From Candidatus Curtissbacteria bacterium RIFOXYA1_FULL_41_14 (GTDB lineage Bacteria > Patescibacteriota > Microgenomatia > Curtissbacterales > GWA2-41-24): 49,671 nt of DNA. How positions within the stretch are numbered: position 1 is the first letter of the stretch; each line of letters starts with the position of its first letter. The notes beneath the pieces were generated by a model. It was not told the origin of the DNA and searched no databases. It worked only from the letters and a program-made list of their open reading frames with translations. Both the position numbers and the translations under genes were made by a program. Positions 20,842 through 49,671 of this stretch are shown here, one piece after another. The stretch spans positions 17,746 to 67,416 of the forward strand of contig MFCA01000028.1 of NCBI GenBank assembly GCA_001775095.1, in the 5' to 3' direction.

Positions 20842-22146
20842 ATGAAAAGCGTTGATTTCTTGATAGTTGGTGGAGGTGTGACTGGGACAACGGCTGCCCA
20901 GACGATAAGAGGTTTGAGGCCTGATTCTTCCGTTGTTATTCTTTCCGACGAGCCTTACGAACTTTATTCACGGATTCTTTTGACCAGTTATATTCGCGGT
21001 GAGGCAACTCAGGAGCAAGTTTTTTTGAAAAGAAATGAGTGGTATCAGGAGAATAGGATAGATTTAGTTAAAGGGGTTTCAGCCCAAAAGCTTGATGCAA
21101 ATGCCCACACAGTAGAGTGTGCAAATGGCGATGTTTATCAATATAAAAAATTACTTTTGGCACTGGGTGCCCGGCCGATAAAATTAAATGTTCCCGGAAG
21201 CGAACTTGGAAATATTTCATATATGTGGACAATTGAGGATGCTGAAGAAGTAATCAATGCACTTAAAGGAACAAATGAGAGCCGCCGGCCCGGAGGGCCT
21301 CTGACCCGGAGGGGTGTGGTTATCGGCGGAGGATTTATTGGACTTGAATTTGCCCACGCCTTTAAAGTTAAGGGAATCGAGACGACAATCCTAGACGGCA
21401 GCGAGTATTACTGGGGTAACAGGCTGGATAAACAGTCGAGCCAAGTTATTCAAAATATCCTGGAAAAAAACGGGATAAGCGTAATTGCCGGTGAGATGGT
21501 TGAAAAATTTGTTGGCAGTCGAGAGAATCCGCAGAATGTCGGAAAGGTCATTACCAAATCAGGGAAGGAATTTGGATGTGATTTGGTCGGAGTTGGGGTT
21601 GGCATTAAAAGCGATCTTGGGTGGCTTGAAGGAAGCGGGATAAAAATTGATCAGGGAATTGTTACAAATGAATATTTAGAAACGAATCTTGGCGATGTTT
21701 ACGCAGCCGGTGATTGTGCCAATTATTATGATGTTATTGTCGAAGGTCAGCACTTGGTCGGAACTTGGGCCAATGCCGCAACCCAGGCAGTAGCGGTCGG
21801 AAAGACCATGACCGGGGTTAAAACTGTATTTGAAGCGGTTTGCGCATATACTGCAAGATTTTTTGAATCAACCTGTTCATTTGTCGGAATGACGGAAGCG
21901 GATTTTGCGGATGAGGTTGTAACACGCGGAACTGTCGCTGAAGGAAAAATTTCCAGAATTTTCCTGAAGAATTACCCTTCGACAAGCTCAGGGTCTATGA
22001 CGCGGATTGTTGGCGCAATTATTGCCAATAATTTTGGCGAAGTTGCGCCAATCACTGATGCAATTAAAAATAAGGTTGATGTATCACAAAATAGAGATAA
22101 ACTTGCGGATGCTAATTTTGATTTGCACTCACTCCCCATAAGCTAG
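20842..22146 (+). CDS. FAD-dependent NAD(P)H oxidoreductase (ferredoxin/rubredoxin reductase-like)
   Basis: GGGVTG, GGGFIGLE, VYAAGD. Confidence 0.9.
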   Translation: MKSVDFLIVGGGVTGTTAAQTIRGLRPDSSVVILSDEPYELYSRILLTSYIRGEATQEQVFLKRNEWYQENRIDLVKGVSAQKLDANAHTVECANGDVYQYKKLLLALGARPIKLNVPGSELGNISYMWTIEDAEEVINALKGTNESRRPGGPLTRRGVVIGGGFIGLEFAHAFKVKGIETTILDGSEYYWGNRLDKQSSQVIQNILEKNGISVIAGEMVEKFVGSRENPQNVGKVITKSGKEFGCDLVGVGVGIKSDLGWLEGSGIKIDQGIVTNEYLETNLGDVYAAGDCANYYDVIVEGQHLVGTWANAATQAVAVGKTMTGVKTVFEAVCAYTARFFESTCSFVGMTEADFADEVVTRGTVAEGKISRIFLKNYPSTSSGSMTRIVGAIIANNFGEVAPITDAIKNKVDVSQNRDKLADANFDLHSLPIS

Positions 22147-46256: not shown

Positions 46257-46844
46257 ATGTTTACCGGAATTATTTCCCATTTAGGCAAAGTTGTTAGTAT
46301 AGAAAGAAACGGGTTTTCTTTTTCTGCTGGCCCATCTTTTTTTAAAAATATTAAAAAGGGATCAAGTGTGGCGGTTAACGGTGTTTGTCTGACAACGATT
46401 GGTCGACCGAGTCATGACTCGTTTAAGGTCGAAGTAATGCCGGAGACTTTGAAGCGGACAATGCTTGGCGATTTGAAAAAGGGAGATCTTGTCAACTTAG
46501 AACTTGCTCTTTCGGCAAATGGGAGATTCGAAGGACATATTGTGCAGGGACACGTGGATGGGAAAGCAATGGCGGTTAATATAGATAAAGAAGAAAACAG
46601 TTTTATTTTTAAATTCAGAGTTGATAAATCTTTAACAAGCTATCTCGTCAACAAAGGTTCTGTTTGTATCAATGGCATTTCTTTAACGGTGATTGAAGCA
46701 AAGAATGATTTTTTTACTGTTGGTATAATTCCTTATACTTGGAATAACACCATGATGAGCCAGTTAAAAGTCGGCGATAAGGTAAATATTGAGGTTGATA
46801 TCTTAGCAAAATACGTGGAAAGAATTATGAAGAATGAATTATGA
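46257..46844 (+). CDS. ribE: riboflavin synthase (alpha chain)
   Basis: MFTGII, SVAVNGVCLT, GHIVQGHVD, VNIEVD. Confidence 0.96.
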   Translation: MFTGIISHLGKVVSIERNGFSFSAGPSFFKNIKKGSSVAVNGVCLTTIGRPSHDSFKVEVMPETLKRTMLGDLKKGDLVNLELALSANGRFEGHIVQGHVDGKAMAVNIDKEENSFIFKFRVDKSLTSYLVNKGSVCINGISLTVIEAKNDFFTVGIIPYTWNNTMMSQLKVGDKVNIEVDILAKYVERIMKNEL

Positions 46845-46845
46845 A

Positions 46846-46944
46846 TGTCATTCTGGGGAGCGAAGCGACGCCAGAATCTAAACAGGTAAGGATTCTGGAC
46901 AAGTCTTTCGACCCTGAGCTCAAGACCGAAGGGCCAGAATGACA
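46846..46944 (+). repeat. palindromic element (TGTCATTCTGG...CCAGAATGACA) carrying the shared 34-nt module
   Basis: AAGTCTTTCGACCCTGAGCTCAAGACCGAAGGGC identical to 20206-20239. Confidence 0.85.
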
Positions 46945-46959
46945 GAAAGACGACCTAAT

Positions 46960-47460
46960 ATGTTGAAGAGTCATAAAGAAAAAGTCGAGATTGATAAGAA
47001 ATTGATAAAAAAGGCCAGAATCGCCATTATCAGAAGCGAATTTAATGGGGAAATTACCCTAAGCCTTGAAAATCACTGCTTAAAAACTCTCCTTGACGCC
47101 GGTCTCAAGCGGAGTCAAATAGGTTTATATCAAGTCCCGGGCTCTTTGGAAATTCCAATTATTGCCCAAACTATTGCTCAAAAGAAAAAGGCTAATGTAA
47201 TTATTGCCTTGGGAGCTGTCATCAAGGGAGACACGTACCACTTCGAAATAGTTGCCAACGAATGTGCCAGGGGTTGTATGGATGTAGCCTTAAAGTACAA
47301 TGTACCGGTGATTTTTGAGGTGATTCCCGCTTACAATCTAAAGCAGGCAAAAGAAAGAGCAGGAAATGACGATAATAATAAAGGAAGGGAAGCGGCATTG
47401 GCAGCGCTGAAAATATTGAAGACTCTTGATGTGCTGTCATCCCGCACCGATTCGGTCTGA
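46960..47460 (+). CDS. ribH: 6,7-dimethyl-8-ribityllumazine synthase
   Basis: SEFN, VPGSLEIP, ALGAVIKGDTYHFE, NKGREAA; start 46939 or 46960. Confidence 0.95.
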   Translation: MLKSHKEKVEIDKKLIKKARIAIIRSEFNGEITLSLENHCLKTLLDAGLKRSQIGLYQVPGSLEIPIIAQTIAQKKKANVIIALGAVIKGDTYHFEIVANECARGCMDVALKYNVPVIFEVIPAYNLKQAKERAGNDDNNKGREAALAALKILKTLDVLSSRTDSV

Positions 47461-47564
47461 GACTCACGGTCGAAGACTTGATGCGGGATCCAGTCTTGCC
47501 CATTTTCTGGATTCTCGCCCTTCGGTCTTGAGCTCAGGGTCGAAAGACTTTCGCGGGAATGACA
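47435..47564 (-). repeat. palindromic element C; supplies ribH last codons and stop
   Basis: Reverse complement matches 20192-20348. Confidence 0.9.
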
Positions 47565-47582
47565 AGGAGAATTGGATGACAA

Positions 47583-47966
47583 ATGACCAAATTGCGATTT
47601 AGTGCCAAAGTAGTTAAAGGGGCTGGTCGAGGTAAAAAACTTGGAATTCCGACAATCAATTTTGTTCCTAAAATAGTAAAAGGTCTTAAGGAGGGAATAT
47701 ATGTTTGTAAAATCGTTTTCCCTTCAGGCCAATATTGGGGAGTTTTGCATTTTGGACCCCGGCCGACTTTTAGAGAAAAGAGCCAATCGTTGGAAGCTTA
47801 TCTTTTTGATTTCGACCGAGTTAGAGTTCCAAAAAAACTTGATATAGAGATCTATTCTTACATTCGGGAGATCGTTAAATTTGCAAATCCGGGACAAATG
47901 GTTAATAAAATCGAAAAAGATATCGAAATTGCCAAAAAGAGGATTAAATTACTCCAAAACAATTAG
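47583..47966 (+). CDS. monofunctional riboflavin kinase (RibF kinase domain)
   Basis: G.GRGKKLGIPTIN, GPRPTF, EAYLFDF. Confidence 0.92.
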   Translation: MTKLRFSAKVVKGAGRGKKLGIPTINFVPKIVKGLKEGIYVCKIVFPSGQYWGVLHFGPRPTFREKSQSLEAYLFDFDRVRVPKKLDIEIYSYIREIVKFANPGQMVNKIEKDIEIAKKRIKLLQNN

Positions 47967-48044
47967 CACTCAACCGTAAAGTCCGCTGATCGAGTCTGAT
48001 TCGACAGACTTGACTGGGATTGACAAACCTTGATACAATAAAAA

Positions 48045-48390
48045 TTGTAAAGCAGTGCTCTTTTGAGGTGGTTAGAAATTTTTATTAGCAGATGGGGCAG
48101 AAATCTGCTAATATTAGAATAATATATCAGAGGAGCGCTATTGACAGGGCGAAGCCTGTCAAAGCGAACTGCTGATATTTTTTTTAATAATGATTTTAAA
48201 CTTAAAAACTACAACCATTTGGCCTCCGGCTCAGAGAGCTTTCTGGCTCGGAGAGTTTTATCACTTTACTCGCTAAATAGCGGGTTTTATGGTTCCTTCT
48301 TCGCATAAAGCTTCGAAGGACAAGGAGTTTTTAAGTTTTAATTAAAAACTAGCCAAATACGAAACTCGCTTAAGGTAGGCGAGTTTTTTT
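48045..48390 (+). ncRNA. candidate structured ncRNA or leader ending in an intrinsic terminator
   Basis: TTGACT-N18-TACAAT upstream, multiple stems, AAACTCGCTT/AGGCGAGTTT plus T run. Confidence 0.4.
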
Positions 48391-48422
48391 ATGAGCAAAA
48401 AACGAAAAGGAGGTGCCATTAA

Positions 48423-48623
48423 ATGTCAGAAAGACAAATATGTTATGCCAAAATACTCGGTAGTTGTCTTGGCTGTGACGTCCTAAATGAAGCCTTACTT
48501 GAGATGAGGAGAAACGGCCGAGAACCAAAAGAAGTACTTGATTTGTTTTCTAATAAAAGATGTCCAGAGGGACTTCGGGTTCAGTTGCCCGAAAAGGAAC
48601 CGTCAATATACTTTGTTAAATAA
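48423..48623 (+). CDS. small Cys-containing hypothetical protein
   Basis: AGGAGGT SD; four Cys. Confidence 0.6.
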   Translation: MSERQICYAKILGSCLGCDVLNEALLEMRRNGREPKEVLDLFSNKRCPEGLRVQLPEKEPSIYFVK

Positions 48624-48802
48624 ACAGTAGTATAGCCTGCTGAAAACCTTGTTATTCTTCGAACAAAGTGAGAAGTCTGCAGTTCTCGCTACGGAGAGTA
48701 TCAGACGGTACTCTCCTACGCTCGAACAATAAGTTTTTAGCAAGCTCAGTAGTAGTGACCCTCCTACGCCAAGGCTACGGAGGGTGAAGGGAGGTGTTGA
48801 AA

Positions 48803-49015
48803 ATGGTAGAAGCAAAAAAAGGTGAAATACCACAGCATTGGCTGGATGATCCTGATATTGGTTTGGCAATTGTTATCATGGGCAGTGTAAAAGAGGAAGC
48901 TGGTAGAATTAGTCCAGGCAATGATCCTGAGTCTGTCCAGAGACGCAATCAGCTAGCATCGTTAATGATAGATCAAGCAGTAGAAAGATTGGTCCATTCT
49001 AATCATAATGGCTAA
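48803..49015 (+). CDS. hypothetical protein
   Basis: GGAGGT SD; overlaps ybaK start. Confidence 0.55.
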   Translation: MVEAKKGEIPQHWLDDPDIGLAIVIMGSVKEEAGRISPGNDPESVQRRNQLASLMIDQAVERLVHSNHNG

Positions 49016-49496
49016 TCTGAAACAAATTAAGATACACTTAGAGTCAAAACGACTGCCATATCAGGTGATTGATTTAGGCCGAGAAGTCTTTACGGTTAAG
49101 GGTGTTGCTCAAACCGGAGTGGATGAGAACGAAATAGTCAAAACTCTAGTTATCAGAAGCAATGATCGGCCTCCGGCCCAGAGGGCCTCTGGCCCGAAGG
49201 GTTTTGTCGCTTTGGCGGTAAGGGGAAAAGATCGGGTTGATTTTAAAAAGGTGAGGAGATTGTTTGGCAGCAAAAGCGAGCTGGCAAAGCCGGAAGAAGT
49301 CAGAAAGGTCATTGGAGTACCAGTAGGCGCAGTTTGCCCGATTTTGATCGGTATTCCTTTATATTTTGATCGTAAGGTGATGGATCTAATGCACGTTAAT
49401 ATGGGTTCGGGAGATTTAAAAAAAGGGCTGGAAATGGAATTTCCCGATCTACTAAAGGCAGTAGGAAAATACGAAGCTGAGGATTTGACAAATTGA
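49008..49496 (+). CDS. YbaK/EbsC family aminoacyl-tRNA deacylase
   Basis: IVKTLV, G..VGAVCP, GSG. Confidence 0.88.
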   Translation: MANLKQIKIHLESKRLPYQVIDLGREVFTVKGVAQTGVDENEIVKTLVIRSNDRPPAQRASGPKGFVALAVRGKDRVDFKKVRRLFGSKSELAKPEEVRKVIGVPVGAVCPILIGIPLYFDRKVMDLMHVNMGSGDLKKGLEMEFPDLLKAVGKYEAEDLTN

Positions 49497-49523
49497 TTTA
49501 TGAATAGCTATACTTTTGTCTAT

Positions 49524-49568
49524 ATGGACGTGCGAGTAATCGCAAATTGGTGGTACAAGACAAACTAA
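49524..49568 (+). CDS. Trp leader peptide MDVRVIANWWYKTN
   Basis: 14-codon ORF with TGGTGG just after TTGACA-N18-TATACT. Confidence 0.8.
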   Translation: MDVRVIANWWYKTN

Positions 49569-49660
49569 CCTTCGGTTGGCTGTTTTGTGATGCCTAAGTT
49601 CTAGAATAACTTTTAAAAAACCAAAAACACAAAACTCGCTAACCGGCGAGTTTTTTTGTG
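49555..49660 (+). promoter_or_regulatory. transcription attenuator (1:2, 2:3, 3:4 hairpins)
   Basis: Mutually exclusive stems; terminator AAAACTCGCT/GGCGAGTTTT plus T run. Confidence 0.8.
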
Positions 49661-49671
49661 GGAAAAAATGA

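Follow-up and report, generated by a model that had tools for sequence, protein, structure and literature searches.

A probable ribosome-mediated tryptophan attenuator ahead of trpS in a bacterium of the Candidate Phyla Radiation

The trpL leader peptide of Escherichia coli has 14 codons and includes a pair of tryptophan (Trp) codons. In this study, we analyzed a leader of comparable design at the 3' end of a 49,671-nucleotide (nt) stretch of DNA (hereafter, the window) from Candidatus Curtissbacteria bacterium RIFOXYA1_FULL_41_14, which belongs to the Candidate Phyla Radiation (CPR). The most probable reading, to which we give a probability of about 0.78, is that it is a ribosome-mediated transcription attenuator which senses charged tRNA-Trp and controls an operon formed by an open reading frame (ORF) of 72 amino acids (aa) and trpS. 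As in trpL, the leader ORF has 14 codons, with adjacent Trp codons approximately five codons before the stop codon; the 1:2, 2:3 and 3:4 hairpins exclude one another, and a U tract forms part of the intrinsic terminator. It differs from trpL in the lack of a Shine-Dalgarno sequence before the leader ORF, which has a -10 box 9 nt upstream and is probably leaderless; in two extra helices, named P0 and P1; in the putatively controlled gene, trpS, in a genome without the Trp pathway; and in that most relatives have a single Trp codon. The leader would work like the E. coli trp attenuator, yet it is not a member of the corresponding Rfam family (RF00513, Trp_leader). When positions 48000-49671 were scanned against Rfam at E-values up to 10, only sub-threshold leader-peptide families were obtained, and neither a riboswitch nor a T-box was detected. 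The top match was RF00513 (29.9 bits, E-value 0.0013), which fell below the gathering score of 41 and consisted mostly of the terminator, and Phe_leader was also matched below its threshold (22.6 bits).

Classical attenuators before synthetase genes are known or predicted for Streptomyces trpS and leuS and for gamma-proteobacterial pheST, according to PMC1262725. Those attenuators, including the predicted one before trpS, share with the present leader a leader peptide with cognate codons and the antiterminator and terminator hairpins. Unlike those examples, the leaders reported here occur in another phylum and have no sequence relationship to them; moreover, one terminator module is reused here for Trp, His and Phe leaders, and is also found before genes for a racemase, tRNA-His and a YbaK-like editing protein. 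Leaderless polycysteine short ORFs of mycobacteria, as described in bioRxiv 10.1101/834739, exert translational control, in which pausing frees a sequestered ribosome-binding site. They resemble our leader in the leaderless start, which is probable here, and in reporting amino acid supply to a downstream operon by pausing at cognate codons, whereas the output here would be an intrinsic transcription terminator. The T-box riboswitch (RF00230) also raises synthetase expression in response to uncharged cognate tRNA via the choice between terminator and antiterminator, but sensing here would proceed via a translated ORF rather than tRNA binding. The sole T-box-like match in the source genome lies elsewhere (C13:38409-38623, locus L074) and scores 31 bits against a gathering score of 93. 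A literature search, from which subscription journals were largely missing, returned no paper on leader-peptide attenuation in CPR bacteria. What appears to be new is the lineage, the combination of an apparently leaderless start with an intrinsic terminator, the helix pairing with the AUG codon and the mostly single regulatory codon, as well as a module that is apparently shared between leaders for three amino acids and also serves racemase and editing genes.

The leader, its alternative hairpins and the downstream trpS gene

All features of the window described here are on the plus strand unless stated otherwise. The boxes TTGACA (49485-49490) and TATACT (49509-49514), separated by 18 nt, form a near-consensus sigma-70 promoter that matches 11 of 12 consensus positions, and the -35 box is located inside the last codons of an upstream YbaK-like gene. 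This promoter was ranked first among seven promoter-like sites in 48000-49671, compared with 2.8 +/- 1.7 sites in shuffled sequences. The -10 box ends 9 nt 5' of the ATG of the leader ORF MDVRVIANWWYKTN (49524-49568; ATG at 49524 and TAA at 49566-49568), which has 14 codons and contains the regulatory Trp codons TGG TGG at 49548-49553. Of 13 family members, 9 have a canonical -10 box that ends 6-12 nt 5' of the start codon, and 12 have no Shine-Dalgarno-like site before the leader ORF, while the downstream genes have strong ones. The spacing of the -10 box and the missing Shine-Dalgarno-like site suggest that the Trp leader mRNA is probably leaderless or nearly so, with a predicted 5' untranslated region of ~0-3 nt.

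The leader RNA (49521-49662) had a folding energy of -40.6 kcal/mol, compared with -28.1 +/- 3.6 kcal/mol for 200 dinucleotide shuffles (z -3.46), only one of which folded as stably as the whole leader. Hairpin P1 (49531-49544), which was seen in the fold, lies within the leader ORF at codons 3-7. It is followed by hairpin 1:2 (also P2, the pause or protector stem; 49549-49594; -18.3 kcal/mol alone), whose 5' strand contains the Trp codons together with the final codons and the stop codon of the leader ORF. An A-rich linker leads from there to the intrinsic terminator 3:4 (49628-49660; -14.9 kcal/mol), which has a run of seven U residues (U7) at 49651-49657. Region 2 (49574-49589) has two alternative partners, region 1 and region 3, the latter (49628-49644) comprising the 5' arm and loop of the terminator. 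Pairing of regions 2 and 3 gives an antiterminator of 15 base pairs (49574-49589 with 49628-49644; -17.4 kcal/mol) which overlaps the 5' arm of the terminator and is exclusive with both hairpin 1:2 and terminator 3:4. In addition, helix P0 joins a 5' strand that overlaps the start codon (49526-49529) to the bases just 3' of hairpin 1:2 (49598-49601). A plain terminator scan reported the terminator hairpin on the minus strand only (49654-49631), because its stem extension had consumed the T run on the plus strand; the plus-strand hairpin followed by U7 is visible in both the fold and the Rfam alignment.

The alternative states were further compared by constrained folding, a thermodynamic model in which nucleotides were masked as by a ribosome at set codons. 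When the first UGG occupied the A site, the antiterminator was the fold of lowest energy; when the second UGG occupied it, both states were near-equal (-23.3 and -23.0 kcal/mol); and a ribosome at the stop codon, or none at all, gave the terminator. The modeled geometry is therefore that of a classical attenuator, in which stalling at the Trp codons frees region 2 and a ribosome at the stop codon blocks it. The original prediction for this locus had proposed the promoter, a short peptide with two adjacent Trp codons (WW), a pause stem, an antiterminator and a terminator, all of which could be located, and the folds switched as expected under ribosome masking.

The same prediction took an ATG at 49668 (49668-49671) for the start of the next gene. 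Such an ATG exists, but it opens an ORF of only five codons (ATG-AAA-GGA-GGA-AAA-TAA) over the AGGAGG Shine-Dalgarno (ribosome-binding) site of the real downstream ORF. The latter begins 17 nt further at window-equivalent position 49685, past the window end, beyond which the contig extends for another 301 nt. It codes for an orphan 72-aa protein with four Cys residues (Cys4), which has no Pfam family and whose only match in a word-based homologue search restricted to proteins of 39-126 residues was itself. The contig (C28) ends within a GC-rich repeat 3' of this ORF, and its final 35 nt recur without change at the end of contig C16 when the latter is read in reverse complement, an overlap that is unique in the assembly. 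Across the C28-C16 join, a short stub resembling the start of trpS, the repeat and a complete tryptophan-tRNA ligase gene were found in this order. This trpS gene (TIGR00233, 282-287 bits versus a cut-off of 176.75) is the sole one of the source genome and the second gene downstream of the leader, and would lie co-oriented ~0.33 kb past the terminator. The expectation of a Trp-related gene was supported by trpS, with the correction that the immediate gene encodes the orphan 72-aa protein. The arrangement of stub, repeat and trpS was also found in genome G015. The assembly broke at the GC-rich repeat by the trpS 5' end (L001:1970-2018 at the end of C28, and L044/L045 at the end of C16), and the preceding stub duplicates the trpS start. 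A similar repeat-like insertion within the 5' end of trpS was observed in genome G001.

The source genome (1.15 Mb) is 99.66% complete. No matches to trpA, trpB or a chorismate-binding (trpE-type) domain were obtained in it, and ribosomal proteins L30 and L9 were not found. The absence of L30 and L9 has been described for CPR lineages. The sequencing runs for the stretch are groundwater metagenomes. Based on the missing trpA, trpB, trpE-type, L30 and L9 genes and the groundwater source, the organism is very probably a Trp-auxotrophic CPR bacterium, consistent with the probable CPR genome proposed earlier. It had also been argued that Trp regulation would be unexpected in such an auxotroph. Genes of the Trp pathway were indeed not found; however, our data support an attenuator that controls tRNA charging rather than Trp synthesis, a target that fits an auxotroph.

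An in-frame ORF with an invariant Trp codon and covarying alternative helices

A DNA search of 40 relatives revealed that the leader DNA is 78-82% identical across three genera, compared with 67-73% for the flanking coding DNA. A covariance model was built from five sequences and then used for searches, resulting in matches in 25 of 32 genomes at the family level (E <= 0.01), 23 of 34 genomes at the order level (E <= 0.001) and 18 of 151 genomes in the class sample (a tally that includes genome G099). Two matches in a phylum sample of 150 other genomes were rejected on inspection; they consisted of a gene or tRNA end beside an ordinary terminator. After the matches had been sorted into types by inspection, the Trp type comprised 19 leaders in 18 genomes from five families.

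ORF conservation was read from a coordinate-driven ORF listing of all 19 Trp leaders. Each of them has an in-frame ORF that starts with ATG or GTG, contains the conserved TGG and is 12-23 codons long, counted from the start at or beside the model match. An additional in-frame ATG is present further 5', inside the promoter, in four of the 19, and ORFs in other frames overlap the element in four of the 19. The lengths of the leader ORFs differ by multiples of 3 only (3 to 27 nt), and in one leader the stop codon has changed from TAA to TGA with the hairpin pair retained. The first Trp codon is invariant (19/19), and is followed by Trp in three leaders, Tyr in 12, and Leu, Phe, His and Cys in one each. 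The conservation of WW, suggested earlier as a check, therefore holds for one Trp codon in all leaders and for the pair in three of them. In all three WW leaders, a small ORF comes next and is directly followed by trpS. In total, trpS lies within three ORFs downstream of 10 of the 19 Trp leaders and exceeds the NCBIfam cut-off where tested, and this cognate gene behind homologous leaders bears out the earlier claim of a classical Trp attenuator ahead of a Trp-related gene. In 10 of the 19, the Trp leader is directly followed by the gene of an amino-acid racemase (PF01177; TIGR00035 in both tested genomes, G023 and G025), and nine of these leaders have Trp followed by Tyr. We speculate that the racemase-linked genes may provide a salvage route for aromatic amino acids. 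In genome G145, the racemase is followed by an AstE/AspA-family enzyme (L062:1643-3123), and the racemase was also seen at L014, L019, L060 and other loci.

Covariation was counted on a 13-sequence family alignment made against the covariance model; it replaced MAFFT alignments, in which the 5' ends of two sequences had been misplaced. For the structure of the terminated state, 89.7% of cells were paired and 16 of 37 pairs had changed on both sides, none of 500 shuffles attained any of five measures, and slid partners paired at 36-45%. Compensatory pairs were found in P0 (3 of 5, with 92.6% of cells paired), P1 (4 of 4, 76.9%), hairpin 1:2 (7 of 19, 89.4%) and the terminator (2 of 9, 94.7%). 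P0 is weak in the source genome, and is stronger and covarying in relatives. The antiterminator was paired in 86.6% of cells versus 29-49% with slid partners, and its shuffle control was moderate only, with 10 of 500 shuffles reaching the observed score. One antiterminator pair is C-G in seven sequences, U-A in three and U-G in two; the same region 3 column also covaries with region 4 (G-C in 10 and A-U in three), as expected of a base with two alternative partners. Considering both conservation and covariation, chance was rejected as an explanation of the Trp leader.

Proposed mechanism and competing explanations

We propose that transcription begins a few nucleotides 5' of the AUG and that a ribosome loads on this leaderless or near-leaderless AUG and trails the polymerase. 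When Trp-tRNA is scarce, the ribosome would stall at UGG UGG and cover the 5' strand of hairpin 1:2; region 2 would then pair with region 3, the terminator would be blocked, and the 72-aa ORF and trpS would be transcribed. When Trp-tRNA is plentiful, the ribosome would reach the UAA within region 1 and mask the start of region 2, allowing hairpin 3:4 and U7 to form and transcription to end at about 49657. If no ribosome is loaded, the 5' domain with its AUG would be shut by P0, P1 and hairpin 1:2, and transcripts would terminate by default. In this scheme, the role of P0 may be to shut off late initiation.

Several observations weigh against such an attenuator. Two Trp codons are found in only three of the 19 leaders, and the single codon of the other 16 is a weaker classical signal. 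Neither trpS nor the racemase was found within 1.5 kb of four of the 19 leaders (in genomes G021, G008, G112 and G161). At the locus itself, the terminator is directly followed by an orphan small ORF and not by a Trp gene, and the link to trpS spans a contig break within a repeat, with a duplicated stub of the trpS start in between. A clear promoter directly 5' of the ORF was not seen in four of 13 family members. P0 has only four pairs here, one of them G-U, and is absent from the minimum-energy fold. Covariation was counted on an alignment that had been fitted to the structure of the model, so the counts lean towards it. Furthermore, P0 and P1 covary within the ORF, which implies RNA constraints beyond those that the classical model requires.

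Some of these features could also be explained if the short ORF were a stalling sensor of another signal, either a TnaC-like arrest peptide that responds to free Trp or another ligand, or a sensor of translation inhibition, which would use the same terminator/antiterminator switch. Such a sensor would suit the invariance of only one Trp codon, the fairly conserved aromatic, basic and T-N residues between Trp and the stop codon in many leaders, and the four of 19 leaders that precede genes without a known Trp link. It is disfavoured and appears very unlikely to us, as the conserved C-terminal codons double as the 5' strand of hairpin 1:2 and their conservation is thus explained by RNA pairing; the sister leaders follow a codon-level logic, with three to four His codons in a row where tRNA-His and hisS come next and Phe-rich runs where pheS or pheA does, and induction of trpS by excess Trp would make little physiological sense. 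The covariation of P0 (3 of 5 pairs) and P1 (4 of 4), although both lie inside the ORF, fits a sensor made of RNA only, such as a riboswitch or a mini tRNA-binding element. Its three-way junction of P0, P1 and P2 would bind a ligand that stabilises the terminator state, and the ORF would be incidental; the lack of conservation of peptide codons 3-8 and the pairing of the AUG itself in P0 point in the same direction. This, too, appears very unlikely to us: the frame is kept in all 19 leaders although their lengths vary by 3 to 27 nt, the stop codon keeps its position where the hairpin sequence changes (including TAA to TGA), and the tandem cognate codons of the His and Phe sister leaders (see below) match the downstream synthetase. 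In addition, no T-box or other Rfam match at E up to 10 was found beyond the weak leader-peptide families.

The rnTrpL RNA of Sinorhizobium is reportedly a trans-acting small RNA that may double as an attenuator. By analogy, the 135-nt unit from promoter to terminator could chiefly be the gene of a trans-acting small RNA, with attenuation perhaps as an additional role. The unit is equipped with a promoter of its own and ends in a strong terminator, and the terminated RNA is predicted to be highly structured, with its 5' end protected by P0. We consider this the least probable of the alternatives, given that the element is always directly upstream of co-oriented genes for which a second promoter is not evident; it is also compatible with ribosome-mediated attenuation.

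Putative sister attenuators and neighbouring features

Only two terminators of this particular form were found in the source genome. The other one belongs to a Phe-type attenuator (48190-48390) located 1.2 kb upstream, in which a leader ORF of 28 codons (48190-48276), rich in aromatic residues, is combined with the same terminator module (48362-48390). Downstream of it lie the gene of a Cys protein of 66 aa (48423-48623), an ORF of 73 aa and the YbaK-like gene. Its leader ORF carries an in-frame repeat insertion of 33-35 nt in the source genome; relatives of this leader have a conserved aromatic-rich C-terminus (F-T/A-R in 13 of 15; two read through). Phe-rich leaders were detected ahead of genes for a family of Cys proteins of 61-76 aa and for the YbaK-like editing protein (PF04073) in eight genomes, ahead of a prephenate dehydratase gene with an ACT domain in genome G016, and ahead of pheS (TIGR00468, 251.9 bits versus a cut-off of 237.45) in genome G060. 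Three genomes of other families have leaders with three to four consecutive His codons ahead of hisS (TIGR00442, 400-411 bits versus a cut-off of 286.75), and in two of them a tRNA-His gene stands between the leader and hisS. Where a clearly classified leader has a synthetase gene downstream, no non-cognate pairs of leader and synthetase were seen.

It is a tentative idea, for which we would give somewhat less than even odds, that a modular family of leaderless attenuators is the main way in which one CPR class matches its translation apparatus to scavenged amino acids. If so, codon cassettes for Trp, His or Phe would be combined with the same terminator module, and the family would control TrpRS, HisRS with tRNA-His, PheRS, prephenate dehydratase and the YbaK-like editing factor. 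It would also control the racemase, in some cases together with an enzyme of the aminoacylase family, and these might act in the salvage of D- or N-acyl-aromatic amino acids. The AUG-pairing helix would give a brief window for leaderless initiation, and untranslated transcripts would terminate by default. The genomes of CPR bacteria are very small, with few regulators that can be recognised, and the element indicates that the ribosome may serve as a sensor of tRNA charging in these organisms, acting on synthetase genes instead of lost biosynthetic pathways. It also represents an RNA family absent from Rfam that should be useful to annotators, could be an easily portable reporter of Trp limitation, and gives a starting point for work on the racemase and YbaK-like genes that appear to be co-regulated.

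Some further candidates were not counted as His leaders. In genome G022 (L034:1300-1620), the His codons are the 3' end of a longer ORF and there is no stand-alone leader; genomes G010 and G147 have two His codons only or an interrupted run. A second locus of genome G145, whose third gene codes for a lysine-tRNA ligase of class I, was left unclassified, as its short ORF is not rich in Lys codons. At the G022 locus, two His codons and the stop codon lie in a hairpin, hisI and hisS are found downstream, and the C-terminal part of the longer ORF resembles, by eye, TrpR/YerC-like proteins. In genomes G171 (L063:1501-3004) and G108 (L067:1501-3008), the order is His leader, terminator, tRNA-His(GTG) and hisS, and the 5' end of the tRNA gene overlaps a conserved GTGG after the U tract.

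The gene immediately upstream of the Trp leader (49008-49496) encodes a protein with a YbaK-like aminoacyl-tRNA editing domain (PF04073, 79.6 bits). Since there is no other terminator 3' of this gene, the Trp attenuator would also terminate the upstream operon. Both the YbaK-like gene (49168-49201) and the Phe-type leader (~48221-48255) contain an in-frame insertion of a mini-repeat of ~33 nt, which is GC-rich and forms a hairpin; further copies occur in the source genome (at 21281-21313 of the window and at G000:C25:109611-109640) and in many related genomes. Upstream of the Phe-type leader, a promoter-like site (48010-48039) is followed, up to 48187, by ~140 nt of structured RNA that has no Rfam match and ends in a terminator-like hairpin and a T run directly before the leader ATG. 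The Trp-type leaders of genomes G001 and G023 are likewise closely preceded by such a hairpin and T run. Finally, the intergenic stretches between riboflavin genes (46825-46974 and 47426-47602) contain inverted copies of a repeat, and short ORFs, which lie on opposite strands, have a common translated motif.

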